Of a stretch of 43,224 nucleotides of DNA, positions 3,174-43,224 are shown in pieces (the stretch's first letter is position 1; every line of letters begins with the position of its first letter). This stretch comes from a virus. Both the position numbers and the translations under genes were made by a program. The notes under the pieces were generated by a model. That model was not told the DNA's origin, searched no databases, and saw nothing but the letters and a program-made list of their open reading frames with translations. Where the stretch lies: the UHGV virus genome UHGV-0208947; one strand, written 5' to 3'.

Positions 3174-4292
3174 TCAGGCCACGTATTCCGGTTTCATATC
3201 CGCCAGGGTGATGCTGAATTGATCGTGCAGTTCATCGCCTAAGTGACGCTTTGAAGATGCAAGCATGCGCTCGGCTTCAGCGAACCGTTCGGCTGCATGC
3301 GGCTCGTCGGGCTGGGGCAGGGATTTAATAGCCTCCTCAACCTTGTTGCGTGCATCCACTAGGTAATAACGCTTTACGGCTTTGTTTTTCAGCTCGGTGA
3401 ATAGTGCGGATCCCAGCGTAGCTTTCGCCGTTTCAATGTCGGCACGCAGCGATTTGGCGCTATCCACGTCCTGAGCAGATTCGATGCGTTCGCGGAAATC
3501 ATCGGCAAGAGAGTCGACATTTACCGACGATTCCTGTGCGCTTTGCGTGGTTGTGACGGTGTCACCTGAGATATCAGCCAGGCTAACGCGTTGCGGCGTT
3601 GGGTTGATCTCTTTTTCTGTGCGCTGTTCAATCTCATCAGGGGTGTACACACCAAGAACAACTGCAGGGCAATACAGGCGCGCCCAGTATTTGAGTGCCA
3701 GATAAGCGATCTGCTGTTTCGGGTTTGATACCCAAAGTGGAGAATTACGTGTGATTACGCTGGAGAGGAAAACAGGCTCTCCCCAGGTGATATCACTTTC
3801 ACCGCGAATAACGGCACCTACCCGTACCGACAGTCCTTGTTCATCAGCACTTTCCCAACCGCGTACCATTTCTTTCTTGTCGTACGTCCCGCCACCTTTC
3901 GCAGGCTTTTTAACGGTTATCTCGCGGCTGCTGGCACATTTCGACCAGTCGCCCTCGTACTCATAGTGAAAGCGGCCAACGATGGCGTTTGAGCTGGAGA
4001 TCACCGCATTAACCAGTTGCGCTTCGTATCCCAGGACACCGTTAACCAGGTGCGTCTTTTGCGCCACGGCGTAAGGGTTCATACCCCACTGCATCGCCTG
4101 CATGATGATGGCCATGCAGTCTGCCGGATTGCCGCGGAGGTGCTCAGGCACCGTTACGGCTGCCTGTGCCATCAACCCGGCGACAGACTGAAGCTGGGTT
4201 AAAGCCTGCACGTTGAAAATGGCATTGCTGGCTGAGATCGTGTTTGGAGTCTGCTGTTCAGCGGTTACGATATTCGTGTTTTCCATCATCAT
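3174..4292 (-). CDS. RecT-family single-strand annealing protein (candidate)
   Basis: 372-aa ORF immediately downstream of the RecE-like exonuclease; region ...VPEHLRGNPADCMAIIMQAMQWGMNPY...GVLGYEAQLVNAV... follows the RecT-like pattern as I recall it. Confidence 0.55.
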   Translation of the reverse strand: MMMENTNIVTAEQQTPNTISASNAIFNVQALTQLQSVAGLMAQAAVTVPEHLRGNPADCMAIIMQAMQWGMNPYAVAQKTHLVNGVLGYEAQLVNAVISSSNAIVGRFHYEYEGDWSKCASSREITVKKPAKGGGTYDKKEMVRGWESADEQGLSVRVGAVIRGESDITWGEPVFLSSVITRNSPLWVSNPKQQIAYLALKYWARLYCPAVVLGVYTPDEIEQRTEKEINPTPQRVSLADISGDTVTTTQSAQESSVNVDSLADDFRERIESAQDVDSAKSLRADIETAKATLGSALFTELKNKAVKRYYLVDARNKVEEAIKSLPQPDEPHAAERFAEAERMLASSKRHLGDELHDQFSITLADMKPEYVA

Positions 4293-36612: not shown

Positions 36613-37158
36613 GTGGCAGGTAAGGGACTGTCAACTATTGGCCCTTTGGATCTGGCATCTCTAAATGATGATAACTTTGTAATCACCATTGTTTTTCCTC
36701 ATTCGACGGCAAAAAATTATCCAATGGCTGTAGCCATTGCTGAGCTTTCAGATGTAAATAAAATTGGTGAGATAGCAGGGAAAAAATTCCATTTAGCGTC
36801 CTTTAGTAAAACGCCTGATCAACTATCAAGAGCTGCAAACCTATGTTATCTGGTGTATGGAATTACTGGCGTTCAAGCCTTTATTAACGGTGAGTTGGTT
36901 GTAAATGTTCAGGAGTTATCATCTTCTCTTGGATGTTATGCTCGATCACTAAAAGCCAACAATCAGCAGTCTTATTGCGAATGCGTTTCTAACTACCCGG
37001 GCAACTACCTTTTACCTTGCCGTTTACTTAGGGGGTGGGAAGGCGGAGTGTCCGATAAATTGCCATTTAGTTTGGCTGACCAAATACAAGCATTGGCAGT
37101 AAGTAAAGGGTGTAGTTGGTGTCCCAATTTCCACCCAGAAAAGATGAAGCGAATTTAA
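36613..37158 (+). CDS. Cys-rich hypothetical protein (second gene of the moron cassette)
   Basis: GTG start abutting the upstream stop; 181 aa with CxC...C...CxxC; followed by a strong terminator. Confidence 0.45.
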   Translation: MAGKGLSTIGPLDLASLNDDNFVITIVFPHSTAKNYPMAVAIAELSDVNKIGEIAGKKFHLASFSKTPDQLSRAANLCYLVYGITGVQAFINGELVVNVQELSSSLGCYARSLKANNQQSYCECVSNYPGNYLLPCRLLRGWEGGVSDKLPFSLADQIQALAVSKGCSWCPNFHPEKMKRI

Positions 37159-37995: not shown

Positions 37996-38069
37996 ACTTT
38001 CTGCACCTTGAGGATAGCAAGGGAGAATATGTGATTAATTTTAGCAAACTGATACGGGAGTTGCGAGTC

Positions 38070-38168
38070 ATGGGCGAAAAACTACCCAACTGGAAATTCT
38101 TCCTCATCTGGGCCGTGTTCTTTTTATTCGGTCTGTCAAGCGTTATTAGCGCTATACGCTGGTGGTGA
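38070..38168 (+). CDS. Possible 32-aa membrane peptide
   Basis: MGEKLPNWKFFLIWAVFFLFGLSSVISAIRWW; GGGAG upstream; in-frame GTG at 38031 would give 45 aa; could be spurious. Confidence 0.2.
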   Translation: MGEKLPNWKFFLIWAVFFLFGLSSVISAIRWW

Positions 38169-38171
38169 TTT

Positions 38172-38525
38172 ATGCGATACCGACGCGAAGATGCTGACGG
38201 CGATTACACTTTCGGGCAGGGTGACAACACCTTCCTTATCGACAGCCCGGAGTGCGTTGCCCAGGCCGTAAAAACCCGTTTCGAGCTGTGGCGAGGTCAG
38301 TGGTTTCTCGACCTGACAGAAGGCACGCCGTATGTCCAGTCAGTGCTGGGTAAGCAGCGTTCTGACGTCTACATCCTGGCTATACGCGAACGCATACAGG
38401 ACACACCGGGCGTTCTGTCGATTCTTTCCTTTGATACCAATTATGACGGCACCAGTCGCCGCGTTACCTTCACCTCCTCCATTGACACAATCTACGGCCA
38501 GACGACTGTAACAAGCGAGGCATAA
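38172..38525 (+). CDS. Baseplate protein, GPW/gp25-like (candidate)
   Basis: 117-aa ORF immediately upstream of the J-like baseplate gene. Confidence 0.5.
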   Translation: MRYRREDADGDYTFGQGDNTFLIDSPECVAQAVKTRFELWRGQWFLDLTEGTPYVQSVLGKQRSDVYILAIRERIQDTPGVLSILSFDTNYDGTSRRVTFTSSIDTIYGQTTVTSEA

Positions 38526-39725
38526 ATGGCTTTGAACCTCGACACGCTGGGGCTATCGGCAACGGTAACCGCCCAGGGGATTAGTGCGCCTGATTACCAG
38601 ACAATCCTAGATACACTGACCAGCTATTTCAGGCAGATTTACGGTAGTGATGCCTACCTCGAACCAGACAGCAAAGACGGGCAGATGGTCGCGCTGGTGG
38701 CTCTTGCCGTGCATGACGCTAACAACACCGCTATCGGGATCTACAACTCTTTTTCACCGACGACAGCGCAGGCCGCAGCGCTTAGCAGCAATGTAAAAAT
38801 TAACGGGATCACGCGAAAAGTAGCGACAAACTCTACAGCTGACCTTCTGTTAACCGGTACGGCAGGCACGACTATCTCGAATGGTTCTGCACGGGATAAA
38901 AACGGCATAATCTGGAATTTTCCAGCGAGTGTAGCGATCGGCGTTGATGGTACTGTGCTGGTGACGGCCACATGTGCGAATAGCGGTTCGGTTGCGGCGA
39001 TGGCCGGGACTATCACCACCATTAACACACCGACTCGCGGCTGGGTGTCGGTAACCAACCCGGCTGCGGCTACTGTCGGTTCACCAGCAGAAACCGACGC
39101 AGAGCTGCGCATTCGGCAGGGGCAAAGCGTAGCGCTATCATCGATCACACCGTTTGAAGGCGTCGACGGTGCGATCGCCAACGTTGCGGGCGTGACACGT
39201 CACAAGCTCTACGAAAATGATACTGGAGCAACCGACAGCAACGGGTTGCCACCGCATTCAATTTCCGCCATCGTTGAGGGAGGGGATGTTACTGAAATAG
39301 CCCAGACCATCAGGGGGAATAAAGGGCAGGGAACCGCAACTTACGGTACAACTTCTGTCACCGTGCCGGATACTTACGGTAATCCTCACGTCATCAGTTT
39401 TTCGCGTTCTACCGATGTGCCAATTTTTGTAGCCATTACCCTGAAAGTTTTTACCGGGTATACATCTCAAATCGGCGAGCAGATAAAACAGGCTGTTGCC
39501 GATTATATAAATGGCCTGGCAATTGGCGATGACGTTCTGCTGAGTCGTATTTATTCCCCGGCAAACCTTGGCGTGGTAAGCGGAGGCAGTGCTCGCTATT
39601 ACGACATTCAGGAGCTGCTCATCGGCAAATCCTCTGACTCAGTCGCAAGCGGAAATATCGATATTGCTTATGACGAATCTGCGTCATGCGTTGCGAGTCA
39701 CGTCACTATCACGGTGACCTCATGA
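38526..39725 (+). CDS. Baseplate J-like protein
   Basis: 399-aa ORF in the conserved V-W-J baseplate order. Confidence 0.65.
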   Translation: MALNLDTLGLSATVTAQGISAPDYQTILDTLTSYFRQIYGSDAYLEPDSKDGQMVALVALAVHDANNTAIGIYNSFSPTTAQAAALSSNVKINGITRKVATNSTADLLLTGTAGTTISNGSARDKNGIIWNFPASVAIGVDGTVLVTATCANSGSVAAMAGTITTINTPTRGWVSVTNPAAATVGSPAETDAELRIRQGQSVALSSITPFEGVDGAIANVAGVTRHKLYENDTGATDSNGLPPHSISAIVEGGDVTEIAQTIRGNKGQGTATYGTTSVTVPDTYGNPHVISFSRSTDVPIFVAITLKVFTGYTSQIGEQIKQAVADYINGLAIGDDVLLSRIYSPANLGVVSGGSARYYDIQELLIGKSSDSVASGNIDIAYDESASCVASHVTITVTS

Positions 39726-40402
39726 GCAAATACACCGAACTGATCACTAACTACCATGCTACCAAGCCACTCTTTTTTGACCATATAGATCTGAGCACCC
39801 GCCCGCTGATTGATGTGTCCAGCACTATGTCAGGGCTTGTAACAGCCTTCGATATCGATACGGCGGTTGGCGTGCAACTCGATATCCTCGGCCTGTGGAT
39901 TGGGCGTAGTCGTATAGTCAGCCAGCCAATTAGCGGCGTTTATTTCAGCTGGGACACTGACGGGCTCGGATATGACCAGGGCATCTGGCAAGGGCCATAT
40001 GATCCTGATTCTGGCTATACGACGCTGAGTGATGAGACGTACCGCATCATTCTGAAAGCGAAAATCGCTATCAACAACTGGGATGGTCGGAACGACTCTC
40101 TGCCTCCCATCCTTGACGCTGCTACCGCAGGCTCTGGACTGAAGATGCAGATCGTCGATAACCAGGACATGACGATATCGGTCTGGGTTTTTCCCGAGAC
40201 TGATATTTCTGATGTGTCACTCGAACTGATAGCCGCTATCAAACAGGGTTATCTCACCGTTAAAGCTGCTGGTGTATGGGCTGGCGGCGTTGAAACACCC
40301 TCAGTCGAAACACCGTCCGAAGGAACAAAATTCTTTGGATTTGACATGGATAACGAATACATCGCCGGTTTTAATGACGGCGCATGGGGGAGATTACTTT
40401 AA
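39722..40402 (+). CDS. Tail protein (Mu gp48 / P2 gpI-like position)
   Basis: ATG at 39722 overlapping the previous stop; 226 aa; precedes the tail fibre gene. Confidence 0.5.
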   Translation: MSKYTELITNYHATKPLFFDHIDLSTRPLIDVSSTMSGLVTAFDIDTAVGVQLDILGLWIGRSRIVSQPISGVYFSWDTDGLGYDQGIWQGPYDPDSGYTTLSDETYRIILKAKIAINNWDGRNDSLPPILDAATAGSGLKMQIVDNQDMTISVWVFPETDISDVSLELIAAIKQGYLTVKAAGVWAGGVETPSVETPSEGTKFFGFDMDNEYIAGFNDGAWGRLL

Positions 40403-41130
40403 TGGCTGGAACTAATGATTTTAAAGCGTTTGCGACAGATGCTAATGCAAATGTTACCTCGCAGGAGGAATGGGAGACGCTAACCGCACTGAAGAAAGGA
40501 TTCTCCTCGGGTAAAGCATCCAGCGCACAGGTCAGTAAAGCGCTGCGCCAACCGTCGACGATGGCGGCTGTACTGGGGCAGTTTATCGCGAACGCCGAAC
40601 TGGACGCGCTCGATGATGGTGACGTTGATGGACTGGTGGCAAAGCTGGCGACAGCGATTACCACAAACCTTGGTTTGGGAGAAGGCTCTGCATTACCTGT
40701 TGGTGTCCCTGTTCCGTGGCCTTCAGCCACTCCGCCAACAGGCTGGCTGAAATGCAATGGTGCAGCTTTTTCTGCTGAAGAATACCCGGAACTGGCAAAG
40801 GCTTATCCGACAAATAAATTGCCTGATTTACGTGGTGAGTTTATTCGTGGCTGGGATGACGGTCGTTCAGTAGATACTGGTCGCAGCGTTATGTCTGCAC
40901 AGAGAGCGCGTGTTGGTTATATTAAATTTGATATGGGAATTTATGGTATTCCTGCAGGTACGGGCTCACTTATTTTGTCCAATGATATCTTAATTACGGG
41001 TCATGACAGTAATGGCTCAAGCCTATTACTGAACAACTCTAATGAGCGGGCAATTGGTGAAATGTATGTCGTTCCTGCCGATACTCGCCCACAAAATATT
41101 GCATTTAACTATATCGTGAGGGCCGCATAA
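40402..41130 (+). CDS. Tail fibre protein (constant N-terminus plus currently expressed variable C-terminus with tail-collar-like motif)
   Basis: ...GWLKCNGAAFSAEEYPELAKAY...LPDLRGEFIRG resembles the phage tail collar/fibre domain; the hix-like crossover site lies within the gene at 40658-40683. Confidence 0.75.
   Translation: MAGTNDFKAFATDANANVTSQEEWETLTALKKGFSSGKASSAQVSKALRQPSTMAAVLGQFIANAELDALDDGDVDGLVAKLATAITTNLGLGEGSALPVGVPVPWPSATPPTGWLKCNGAAFSAEEYPELAKAYPTNKLPDLRGEFIRGWDDGRSVDTGRSVMSAQRARVGYIKFDMGIYGIPAGTGSLILSNDILITGHDSNGSSLLLNNSNERAIGEMYVVPADTRPQNIAFNYIVRAA
40658..40683. promoter_or_regulatory. Left inversion crossover site (hix/gix-like 26 bp) inside the tail fibre gene
   Basis: TTACCACAAACCTTGGTTTGGGAGAA; its reverse complement shares the first 14 bp (TTCTCCCAAACCAA) with the site at 42591-42616. 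Confidence 0.6.
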
Positions 41131-41732
41131 TGAATAATGCAGAATTAAATAGTGAATTGATTGCTACTGCGGCAGGGAATATTACTGTTTATAACTATGA
41201 TGGTGAGACGCGAGAGTATACTACTACATCAACTGAATATCTTGCTGTGGGTGTCGGTATCCCGGCAAGTTCCTGTTTAGATACTCCTGGCTCATATAAA
41301 GCTGGTTATGCAATCTGCCGTTCTGCAGATTTTAACTCATGGGAATATGTGCCAGACCATCGCGGTGAAATCGTCTTTAGCACCGAAACAGGAGAATCAA
41401 AAGAAATCACAGCTCCGGGTGATTACCCTAATAATACAACCACTATCGCCCCATTAACGCCATACGATAAATGGGATGGTGAGAAATGGGTGACGGATAC
41501 TGAGGCACAGCATAGCGCCGCAGTAGACGCGGCAGAAGCACAGCGTCAGTCACTGATTGATGCTGCAATGGCTTCCATCAGTCTGATTCAGCTGAAATTA
41601 CAGGCCGGACGGAAGTTGATGCAGGCAGAAACAACCCGGCTTAACGCTGTGCTGGATTACATTGACGCGGTGACGGCAACAAATACCAGCACCGCGCCGG
41701 ATGTCATCTGGCCTGAACTGCCGGAGGAGTAG
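41130..41732 (+). CDS. Tail fibre assembly protein (chaperone)
   Basis: 200 aa; C-terminal ...TNTSTAPDVIWPELPEE typical of Tfa proteins; coupled to the tail fibre gene. Confidence 0.7.
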   Translation: MNNAELNSELIATAAGNITVYNYDGETREYTTTSTEYLAVGVGIPASSCLDTPGSYKAGYAICRSADFNSWEYVPDHRGEIVFSTETGESKEITAPGDYPNNTTTIAPLTPYDKWDGEKWVTDTEAQHSAAVDAAEAQRQSLIDAAMASISLIQLKLQAGRKLMQAETTRLNAVLDYIDAVTATNTSTAPDVIWPELPEE

Positions 41733-42147
41733 GCCATTCAATATCTGGCGCACCGGAAGTATCGACCAGTTCCAGTGCGTCCAGATAATCCAGCCACGAA
41801 TTATATTGCGCCAGTTCCTCGCCTTTCAGACGACCAATAGCAGCTTTGCCAGGCCACTGATGGGTATTGATGTAGGTATTGACTTCTGAAACCAAAGATA
41901 TTTTTTTCATTTCAGCCGTCAACACCTCATCCTCTTTTGAAGGGGGTGGGGAATTAATCCATACTGGCCGTCCTGAACTATCAGCGCCAATTTCTTTCCC
42001 TTCTGGATGCAGACCAAGAAATTGCTCATATGTTTCTCTGGTAATTTCAATAACATCATCAGGAAGCGTTCCCGCATCCTCATATTCTGGAAACAATTCT
42101 TGCAGATAAAAACTTTTACTTCCGGGTGAAAAGAATACTGAGTTCAT
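41704..42147 (-). CDS. Alternative tail fibre assembly protein (inverted orientation)
   Basis: 147 aa; C-terminal ...DTSGAPDIEWPTPPAVQAR parallels the plus-strand Tfa; convergent overlap. Confidence 0.7.
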   Translation of the reverse strand: MNSVFFSPGSKSFYLQELFPEYEDAGTLPDDVIEITRETYEQFLGLHPEGKEIGADSSGRPVWINSPPPSKEDEVLTAEMKKISLVSEVNTYINTHQWPGKAAIGRLKGEELAQYNSWLDYLDALELVDTSGAPDIEWPTPPAVQAR

Positions 42148-42149
42148 TA

Positions 42150-42623
42150 TTACCGTCCAATGATTAACGCTGAGACGCTGGTATCTGAAGGAAAGTCTGC
42201 ATTCAGTGGTTTGTCGACTTTGAATACAATCGTATTATTCCCCCGGACAGCGGCAAAAGAACAAACCGCCGTCGCGTATGAACCTGTAATATTACTGAAT
42301 ACACCACCATAGGCTGTTGTTGATACCAGAGGGATAACGCCCAGCACCTTATTAGGAAATACAAAGGGCAATGTGGCTGTGGCAATATAAGACTTATTAG
42401 AACCTGTAATGGCATAAGCATTATCAGTCATTCCATTCATCGCCACTGGACCGCTTATACTTACAGTAACCATCTGAGTGATTAGCCCGTCAGGTTGACG
42501 AATCACAAAATTTCCATTGCCACCAGTAACCGTCCAGAAAGACATATCAGGGATTTGGTTTTCCCCGTTGCCCACATTCCTTTTTGCCGCTTCTCCCAAA
42601 CCAACCTTTTTTATAACCATCAA
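42150..42623 (-). CDS. Alternative tail fibre variable C-terminal cassette (silent in this orientation)
   Basis: N-terminal ...KKVGLGEAAKRN... reads through the right hix-like site and shares the GLGE junction with the constant part of the plus-strand fibre (..TTNLGLGEGS..). Confidence 0.65.
   Translation of the reverse strand: MMVIKKVGLGEAAKRNVGNGENQIPDMSFWTVTGGNGNFVIRQPDGLITQMVTVSISGPVAMNGMTDNAYAITGSNKSYIATATLPFVFPNKVLGVIPLVSTTAYGGVFSNITGSYATAVCSFAAVRGNNTIVFKVDKPLNADFPSDTSVSALIIGR
42591..42616. promoter_or_regulatory. Right inversion crossover site (hix/gix-like 26 bp)
   Basis: TTCTCCCAAACCAACCTTTTTTATAA; compare hixL TTCTTGAAAACCAAGGTTTTTGATAA as recalled. Confidence 0.6.
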
Positions 42624-42675
42624 AAATCTGGTGATGCTTCGCCGTTTCTCCTGTTTTCATAACAGGAGAAATCCC

Positions 42676-43224
42676 ATGATTTACGGTTATGCCCGAGTAT
42701 CAACAAACCACCAGGACACTGAATTGCAACTAACGGCGCTCAAGTCAGCGGGTTGTGAGAAAATTTTTGAAGAGCATGCCAGCGGGAGGAAATCGAATCG
42801 GCCGGTTCTAAAACGGCTGATCGCCACTATGCAGCCGGGGGATGAACTGGTGGTCTGGAAGCTGGACAGGATAGGCCGCAACGTTCTGCATGCGCTGTTG
42901 ATGTTCCAGCAGTTACAGGAAAAGGGTATCAACTTCCGCAGTATTACCGATGGCGTGGATCTCAAAACAGCCAGCGGCCGCTATAACTTTCGTAACATCC
43001 TTTCCGCAGCACAATATGAATCTGATCTTAATAGCGAACGTACCTTAGCAGGGCTGGCCGTAGCCAGGGCAAAAGGGCGAGTTGGTGGTCGCAGGCCTAA
43101 GTTCACGGATGAGCAATGGTGGGAAATGGGGGAGCGGATGGCAACCGGTGAATCACGACAAAGCGTATCAAAAACATATGGAGTAGGGCTCTCAACTCTG
43201 TATAAAAAGTTTCCAGCTAGCTGA
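42676..43224 (+). CDS. Serine DNA invertase (Gin/Hin/Pin/Cin family)
   Basis: ATG at 42676 after AGGAGA; MIYGYARVSTNHQDTELQ... with catalytic Ser in YARVST, VVWKLDRIGRN, C-terminal HTH ...GLSTLYKKFPAS; ends with TGA at the last window base. Confidence 0.85.
   Translation: MIYGYARVSTNHQDTELQLTALKSAGCEKIFEEHASGRKSNRPVLKRLIATMQPGDELVVWKLDRIGRNVLHALLMFQQLQEKGINFRSITDGVDLKTASGRYNFRNILSAAQYESDLNSERTLAGLAVARAKGRVGGRRPKFTDEQWWEMGERMATGESRQSVSKTYGVGLSTLYKKFPAS

Follow-up and report, generated by a model that had tools for sequence, protein, structure and literature searches.

Organization of the tail-fibre locus

The window analysed here is the whole 43,224-nucleotide (nt) stretch of DNA from the virus genome UHGV-0208947. 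Its right end harbours a tail-fibre gene, two 26-bp sites and the gene of a serine DNA invertase, and we examined this locus as a candidate site-specific inversion switch. The two sites bracket a 1.93-kb segment with two convergent cassettes, each composed of a fibre C-terminus and a gene for a Tfa chaperone. The features of the locus, in window coordinates, are:

40402-41130, plus strand: expressed tail-fibre gene, 242 amino acids (aa), with a Pfam Collar domain (PF07484, E=1.3e-15) at residues 101-148
40402 to ~40669, plus strand: constant fibre part Sc, 90 codons; 94 residues are common to both fibre forms
40658-40683: left recombination site, TTACCACAAACC TT GGTTTGGGAGAA, at codons 86-94 (ITTNLGLGE) of the fibre open reading frame (ORF), with the crossover TT at 40670-40671
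40670-41130, plus strand: variable fibre part Sv, with the phage tail-collar domain
41130-41732, plus strand: Tfa chaperone of the expressed cassette, 200 aa, TfaE-like (Caudo_TAP, PF02413, E=6.5e-31; 88% DNA identity to e14 tfaE)
41704-42147, minus strand: Tfa chaperone of the silent cassette, 147 aa, TfaP-like (Caudo_TAP, E=9.8e-28), converging on the first tfa gene with a 29-nt overlap
42150 to ~42604, minus strand: silent fibre C-terminus Sv', 146 residues after ..GLGE, without an N-terminus of its own in the present orientation
42591-42616: right recombination site, TTCTCCCAAACC AA CCTTTTTTATAA, with the central AA at 42603-42604 and an imperfect outer half (..AAAAGG)
42629-42672, plus strand: invertase leader, with a terminator-like hairpin at 42629-42644 and a 12-bp hairpin at 42644-42672
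42676-43224, plus strand: serine DNA invertase, 182 aa (Pfam Resolvase, PF00239, E=3.7e-39, and HTH_7, PF02796, E=5.1e-9), outside the invertible segment

Two inverted 26-bp sites bracket two fibre cassettes

The initial annotation had proposed that two 26-bp sites resembling hix and gix, inverted relative to each other, lie at 40658-40683 and 42591-42616. Repeat finding and re-alignment bear this out, and the inverted-repeat relationship on which the proposal hinged is present. The arms 40658-40684 and 42590-42616 form the top-ranked inverted repeat of the region reported by the repeat finder (27 nt, 81% complementary, 1905 nt apart). The reverse complement of the right site reads TTATAAAAAAGG TT GGTTTGGGAGAA; compared in the same sense, the two sites agree at 21 of 26 positions, with the inner half-site and the central TT exactly shared. 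This arrangement of 12+2+12 bp in inverted orientation with identical central dinucleotides is that of Din-type inversion systems, and the half-sites resemble gix, cix and pix as read from Mu, P1 and e14. Moreover, the pattern AAACC AA CCTTT of the right site recurs beside related invertase genes. A multi-site system of the shufflon or Min type was considered and rejected, as the window has two sites only: AAACCWWGGTTT has a single match, and the 43 kb contain two exact copies of the 14-mer TTGGTTTGGGAGAA, one on each strand. Other matches to this 14-mer carry 2-3 mismatches, are distant and lie within chance expectation.

An exact inverted repeat of at least 15 nt with arms at least 50 nt apart was reached in 3 of 500 codon-block shuffles of 38000-43224, and the repeat alone is thus suggestive, not decisive. 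Since it is only moderately unlikely by itself, it might represent nothing but the conserved coding motif ..NLGLGE.., which is encoded in both StfP and StfE of e14 too, and the locus might be a static fossil of cassette shuffling by homologous recombination; the mosaic nature of the cassettes between strains is in line with this. We nevertheless regard such an origin as very improbable. The two sites have the same central dinucleotide in the correct inverted arrangement, and an intact invertase gene abuts the right site, which reaches 12 bp past any fibre coding sequence and is kept beside invertase genes in several genera. In addition, breakpoints fall inside the 26-bp sites across eight genomes, with the outer half-sites fixed to the flanks, as detailed below.

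ORF anatomy and in-silico inversion agree with the initial annotation in placing the left site inside the fibre gene, with a constant N-terminus ending in ..TTNLGLGE, and, together with the Pfam domains, in assigning to the segment two variable C-terminal cassettes, each with its own Tfa. Flipping 40670-42604 in silico produced an in-frame fibre of 240 aa, compared to 242 aa in the present state, with the same 94 N-terminal residues, and the second Tfa gene then directly followed the alternative fibre. The two tips have unrelated domains, Collar in one and a weak gp53-like C-terminal match in the other (PF21882, E=7e-4, under the curated cut-off). The tail-fibre families of PHROG gave separate matches to the N-terminus (residues 1-90) and the C-terminus (84-242) of the fibre, which fits a modular join at the site. 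As in segments of the Mu G and e14 P type, the crossover lies within the fibre ORF, the constant N-terminus is located outside and two in-frame C-termini inside, and each tip is followed by its own U/Tfa chaperone in two converging units.

A further inverted repeat of 18 nt (41651-41668 and 41777-41794, 83% complementary) connects the 3' parts of the two convergent tfa genes (..LDYIDA.. and ..LDYLDA..). It is taken to be coding homology and not a recombination site.

An intact serine invertase gene adjoins the right site

The gene abutting the right site had been assigned to a serine invertase of the Gin/Hin family. Its ORF is intact and starts 59 nt beyond the site, and the combination of a Resolvase catalytic domain with HTH_7 in a protein of the ~180-200 aa range is that of the small serine recombinases. 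The best solved relative is Gin (3uj3, E=3e-56), to which it aligns ungapped from end to end. Tyr5, Arg7, the catalytic Ser9, Arg42 and Asp64-Arg65..Arg68 (DRxGR) are kept, and so are the DNA-binding motifs GGRRPK and STLYKKF. The serine invertase is thereby borne out, and the family assignment holds in a broad sense, but the protein shares only 52-55% identity with the enterobacterial prototypes (51.6% with Gin, 52.2% with Cin and 54.9% with PinE), whereas these are 75-82% identical among themselves, and several hallmarks of Fis- and enhancer-dependent enzymes are missing. NCBIfam provided no specific family for any of the five proteins of the locus, all invertase hits being far under the cut-offs.

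Related phage enzymes are the 'DNA invertase' of phage mEp237 (gp026; 99.5% identity) and gp26 of mEpX1 (85.7%), the latter encoded at positions 3501-4049 of our mEpX1 locus L035. Members of this clade, mostly annotated as 'recombinase family protein', were found in Escherichia, Citrobacter, Klebsiella, Enterobacter, Salmonella, Serratia, Morganella, Kluyvera and Erwinia. Motifs are invariant across 120 cluster representatives of this widespread clade, indicating purifying selection. Furthermore, the clade members of Morganella and Erwinia also adjoin two-cassette fibre/Tfa segments with paired sites.

Both orientations of the segment occur in natural genomes

To compare the segment between genomes we used prophages that share the chromosomal site and have invertases with 99.7-100% identity to that of the window. 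The orientation of the window, with the collar-type cassette joined to the constant part, was present in strains Res13, LR-33 and CH468. The opposite orientation was found in strains G3/10, COL60J, ES5 and GPEC60 and in Citrobacter phage Omnitron; here, the collar-type cassette lies on the other strand beside the invertase gene and the ..GLGEAAKR.. type is fused to the constant part. In all eight genomes the outer half-sites TTACCACAAACC and TTATAAAAAAGG remained with the flanks while GGTTTGGGAGAA travelled with the cassettes, which places the exchange point at the central TT. This exact swapping of cassettes at the central TT in same-site relatives is the decisive support for a switch. The best pair in opposite orientations is Res13 and ES5, which carry the same two cassettes with 94.5% identity; a strain pair whose segments are exact inversions of each other was not found among the compared strains.

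Both states were also detected in a set of 5,426 complete E. coli genomes. The invertase-side junction of the window state had a full-length match in 2 of these, and ten further matches among those listed cover 76-78% of it, whereas the corresponding junction of the inverted state was matched with a coverage of at least 80% in 31 genomes. Matches at the DNA level to P2-like phages, to e14 and to thousands of prophage copies in E. coli set in at 40662-40670 and stop at ~42609. These edges coincide with the sites, which thus delimit a cassette module exchanged by horizontal transfer.

A two-state inversion switch as the most probable reading

We consider it very probable, at roughly 85%, that the tail-gene cluster ends in a switch of the Hin/Gin/Cin/Pin (Din) kind, which alternates between two states by site-specific inversion of DNA. 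This reading is carried by the observed sites, the gene anatomy, the preservation of the reading frame, the intact invertase with its catalytic residues, and the finding that natural genomes show either orientation, with the breakpoints located at the sites. In the proposed mechanism, the 182-aa serine invertase would bind the two 26-bp sites as dimers, cut both at the central TT/AA, rotate the half-complexes and religate them, and this cleavage and religation would flip the 1.93-kb segment 40671-42603 between the central dinucleotides. Because the crossover lies inside the fibre gene, the constant 94 residues, presumably the baseplate-proximal part of the fibre, would be joined to one of two tips. 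In the present state this would be the collar-domain tip, accompanied by the TfaE-like chaperone, and in the flipped state the gp53-like tip, accompanied by the TfaP-like chaperone. A lysogen population would consequently release particles with one or the other receptor specificity. From the data at hand we infer that flipping is carried out by the adjacent invertase, not by one acting in trans, that it is ongoing and that the two tips bind different receptors, and the same holds for the control of the reaction.

Several points weigh against this reading. The occurrence of both states, typical of Din-type systems, is seen between genomes only. The compared segments are mosaic and 80-94% identical, not identical; what the comparison proves is therefore inversion in the course of evolution and not switching at present. 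An in-frame stop codon in the integrase gene of the prophage indicates that the element may be decaying, and the canonical enhancer of such systems is not recognisable. Finally, the window sites could be a substrate for further Pin-type invertases of the same cell, acting in trans: PinQ of prophage Qin inverts the e14 segment (PMC12529663), and the inner half-site of the window is the same as that of e14.

The last point leads to an alternative to which we assign a low probability, namely that the switch is real and is flipped mainly or only by other resident Din-type invertases (PinE, PinQ, PinR, or P2-like or Mu-like enzymes), the adjacent enzyme being a weak or inactive passenger of the phi80-type attP/int module. 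Such a passenger role would agree with mEp237 and mEpX1, which carry the same invertase beside attP without an invertible segment, mEp237 retaining a relic of the right site only. In e14 and P2-like phages, canonical invertases serve cassettes that have this inner half-site, and the trans action of PinQ on e14 is published (PMC12529663). In contrast, the ORF of the adjacent invertase is intact with all catalytic residues and DNA-binding motifs present, the invariant motifs of its widespread clade speak for purifying selection, and in several genera a clade invertase is situated beside a complete two-site fibre segment.

The invertase lacks canonical marks of Fis/enhancer control

It had also been proposed to search for a Fis-dependent enhancer in the 5' part of the invertase gene. 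The canonical form, two sites of the host protein Fis ~48 bp apart, was not recognisable in the window gene; an enhancer might lie elsewhere. For a comparison by position we used 11 canonical genes (Mu, P1, e14, four P2-like phages, LLS Fin, Chris1, YenM and KPP5665-2) and 15 genes of the window clade, 14 of which are non-chimeric. A proximal Fis-type 15-mer G-N13-C at nt 71-85 of the gene was present in 11/11 canonical genes and in none of the 14 non-chimeric clade genes. These positions are in register with the Hin enhancer's proximal Fis site. The window gene reads CAGCGGGTTGTGAGA here and has lost both guanines at +/-7, which constitute the sole critical base contact of Fis (PMC4784862). 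A scan for G-N13-C with an A/T-rich centre was too unspecific, giving 18-20 hits per 360 nt in every gene.

The protein differs accordingly at the positions contacting Fis and the enhancer. Gln151, Arg154 and Leu155 of Hin are conserved Fis contacts in enhancer-dependent invertases (McLean et al., PMC3798978), in which residue 47 is always Lys and either Lys or Arg occupies positions 48 and 51 (PMC3798978). In Hin numbering, the window invertase has Glu, Glu and Arg at 151, 154 and 155, and Lys, Arg and Ala at 47, 48 and 51; the contact residues of Din-type invertases are thus not preserved. Among the canonical enzymes, Arg154 and a basic residue 51 were found in 11/11 and Gln151 and Leu155 in 9/11 each, whereas in the 120 clade representatives the contact positions vary and residue 51 is basic in only three.

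The same applies to helix E, which in canonical enzymes reads GRFFFHVMxALAEMEREL and includes the Phe105/Met109 lock of Hin (PMC4513852). The window enzyme and all 120 clade representatives read GRYNFRNILSAAQYESDL instead, so that this control motif is missing: Phe105, His107, Met109, Leu112 and Met115 of Hin are replaced by Asn, Arg, Ile, Ala and Tyr, in addition to the change of Lys51 to Ala. F-F-F-H..M..L..M was present in 10/11 canonical enzymes, the remaining one, Fin, having Ile at 105. The Hin variant F105N showed strong Fis-independent cleavage and some Fis-independent inversion (PMC4513852). A likeness of helix E (ILSA..Q.E) to gamma-delta resolvase was discarded, as it proved to be out of register on hand check.

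Some constraint on the 5' end of the gene is nevertheless apparent. The region of Fis site I, nt 22-42 (GTATCAACAAACCACCAGGAC), is conserved including synonymous positions, with the Ser codon being TCA in 13/13 genes, and the codon entropy was 0.74-0.80 in codons 1-24 compared to a mean of 1.32 (13 sequences). This synonymous conservation implies some DNA- or RNA-level constraint. It is suggestive of an embedded element, or equally of a translation-initiation constraint. Half an enhancer may be retained at site I (nt 22-36), whose G and C ends are fixed by coding anyway; cin lacks the +7 C at this site.

The invertase gene of mEpX1 shows a different composition. Canonical Fin-like genes are matched by its first ~30 codons (MQIGYVRVSTN..; L035 3501-3600), by the positions of both Fis sites and by the basic residue at 51, while the part beyond ~30 codons carries the helix E motif of the window clade. 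This gene looks chimeric from its sequence.

In our reading of these alignments, the canonical two-site enhancer is absent from the window gene, and canonical Fis/enhancer control of its product appears doubtful. Since the proximal Fis site is gone, the contact patch is not conserved and the Phe105 lock is Asn, we tentatively propose, as a possibility with clearly less than even odds, that the invertases marked by GRYNFRNILSAAQYESDL form a distinct, widespread enterobacterial fibre-invertase clade that no longer uses the canonical Fis/enhancer invertasome. A literature search for natural Fis-independent fibre invertases returned nothing specific.

Expression of the invertase may be restrained by its leader. 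The 3' arm of the hairpin at 42644-42672 contains the Shine-Dalgarno sequence AGGAG (42664-42668), and the leader RNA is predicted to fold with -23.2 kcal/mol (z=-4.46), which was equalled by 0/200 shuffled sequences. The same hairpin sequence is present in close relatives. By burying the Shine-Dalgarno sequence, this hairpin would act as a brake that keeps the invertase level low. No convincing match to a sigma-70 promoter for the invertase gene was detected in the 59-nt spacer; a weak -10-like TATAAC in the outer half-site is a matter of speculation.

Prophage context of the proposed switch

Positions 1-1280 of the window correspond to the E. coli chromosome, comprising kch and the kch-yciI spacer with 98.99% identity to K-12, and prophage sequence begins at ~1261. 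The integrase, recombination and early genes share 96-99% identity with the lambdoid phages mEp237, HK225 and phi80, whereas the late region encodes a contractile tail with sheath, tube-position protein, tape measure, Dit-like protein, baseplate plug and hub, spike, wedge, Baseplate_J and DUF2612. Two of these genes, identified by Pfam, precede the fibre gene:

38526-39725: Baseplate_J gene, upstream of the fibre gene
39722-40402: DUF2612 gene, directly upstream of the fibre gene

Related E. coli genomes have the invertase gene as the final prophage gene before yciI-tonB, and the yciI/tonB insertion point is the phi80 attachment site according to the mEp237 record. The window ends at the invertase stop codon, ~120 nt before the right prophage junction. 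Judged by these matches, the element is an E. coli prophage of hybrid lambdoid-myovirus type that is inserted between kch and yciI, at the attachment site of phi80.

The phi80/mEp237-type integrase gene at 1407-2657 has an in-frame TAG at 1833-1835 where mEp237 has CAG (Gln143), the two integrases being otherwise identical. The stop codon may prevent excision of the prophage, or it may be a sequencing error. An excision defect would be compatible with a use of the switch for the host, in which one chimeric fibre masks a surface receptor and blocks other phages, as reported for StfE2 of e14, an inversion product that blocks T2 adsorption (PMC12529663). The expressed tip is indeed a homologue of e14 StfE over its first ~70 residues and its C-terminal end. 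However, the tip and StfE of e14 differ in the central part, which binds the receptor, and the tail gene set (sheath, tube, tape measure, baseplate) looks complete and fits a virion fibre. We consider this use unlikely, slightly more so than flipping by invertases in trans. It concerns the use of the switch and not its mechanism, and could be compatible with the inversion switch proposed above.

Two further observations concern accessory genes. Within the baseplate gene cluster, 36613-37158 is a 181-aa ORF without a Pfam match, and in apparently the same slot the Res13 prophage has a gene on the other strand with the annotation 'effector-associated constant component EACC1'; by this comparison, the position looks like a variable accessory-gene slot. 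In E. coli COL60J, a second 'recombinase family protein' gene is located just past yciI (L004 5602-5935), which suggests another invertase-bearing element adjoining this attachment site.

Implications for annotation and invertase control

As a host-range switch the locus offers nothing new in principle. Its value for annotation is that a minus-strand 'hypothetical protein' can be named as a silent fibre tip and a 'recombinase family protein' as the fibre invertase, and that assemblies of such prophages may differ or be misassembled at the invertible segment. The only unusual side of the locus is an invertase from a little-studied branch without the usual marks of Fis control. If this clade indeed dispenses with Fis and the enhancer, its members would be DNA invertases that in nature work independently of an enhancer or under a different control, and would correspond to the hyperactive Hin and Gin mutants used as genome-engineering tools. 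They would then reveal by what means directionality and rate are set where no invertasome is involved, with output perhaps limited by low expression, for example through a hairpin sequestering the Shine-Dalgarno sequence.

Comparison with known inversion systems

Since the 1980s, textbooks have covered the inversion of tail-fibre segments by Gin, Cin, Pin and Min. Judged by sequence and gene order, the window locus is a further member of these classical invertible tail-fibre switches and is closest to the P segment/Pin system of e14. The initial annotation had termed it a Mu G-segment-type system, which is correct with respect to gene order and architecture, but the nearest relative is the e14 P segment, with 88-95% DNA identity to stfE/tfaE.

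The e14 segment (ymfQ-stfP-tfaP-tfaE-stfE-pinE) has the same gene order as the window. In both, short fibres are split at ..NLGLGE.., the tfa genes converge with a 29-nt overlap, and the invertase gene lies downstream on the fibre strand. Compared to stfE/tfaE, the expressed cassette of the window shows 94.6% DNA identity over 223 nt from 40662, which is inside the site, and 88.4% over 777 nt. The e14 site beside pinE, TTCTCCCAAACC AA CGTTTATGAAAA, has an inner half-site and central AA identical to those of the window. Differences are the invertase, with its 54.9% identity to PinE, the baseplate neighbour, which is DUF2612 in the window and not DUF2313, and the second cassette, which is of the gp53-like type, unlike that of e14. 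Moreover, the window holds a full-length prophage at the phi80 site, whereas e14 is a remnant at icd. The e14 segment has been documented to invert in culture (PMC4272514), and in a genome scan for programmed inversions tail fibre proteins were enriched as targets and DUF2612 and tail-fibre-assembly proteins among the neighbours (PMC9881135).

Mu (gp47-gp48-S-U-U'-S'-gin) has the same order, represented in the window by a gp47-like baseplate J protein, a protein in the gp48 position, S (constant and variable parts), U, U', the variable part of S' and the invertase. The Mu G segment likewise has its crossover inside S, two 26-bp sites and two states. The fibres differ in length, with 504 aa in Mu and 242 aa in the window. 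Mu gin has the proximal Fis site at nt 71-85, which the window clade lacks, and the Fis-contact residues Q151/R154/L155 (Hin numbering) are E/E/R in the window.

One outer half of hixR is degenerate and ends in ..GG, as in the right site of the window. Hin and hix represent the same enzyme class, with sites of 12+2+12 bp and half-sites ending in ..AAACC (PMC3798978, PMC4513852), but Hin flips a promoter whereas the window system flips a coding cassette.

In the P1 C segment with Cin and in P2-like prophages, fibre cassettes and Tfa are flipped by a small serine invertase as proposed for the window. Cassettes of the P2-like phages pro483, Kp48xx and MET_P1_103_31 are ~90% identical at the DNA level to Sv/Tfa of the window, with similarity starting at the crossover site. 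The invertases of P1 and the P2-like phages are canonical and only 52-56% identical to that of the window; they have FFFH..M..L..M, Q..RL and the proximal Fis site.

The invertase genes of mEp237 and mEpX1 lie just upstream of a phi80-type attP and int, as does that of the window after permuting the prophage map, and by this synteny the invertase seems to travel with the attP/int module. These siphoviruses are without the two-site fibre segment, unlike the window. In mEp237 (L008 5916-6549), a relic right site, TTCTCCCAAACC AA CCTTTCAAATAT, is found 59 nt upstream of the invertase gene, together with ~50 nt of silent cassette.

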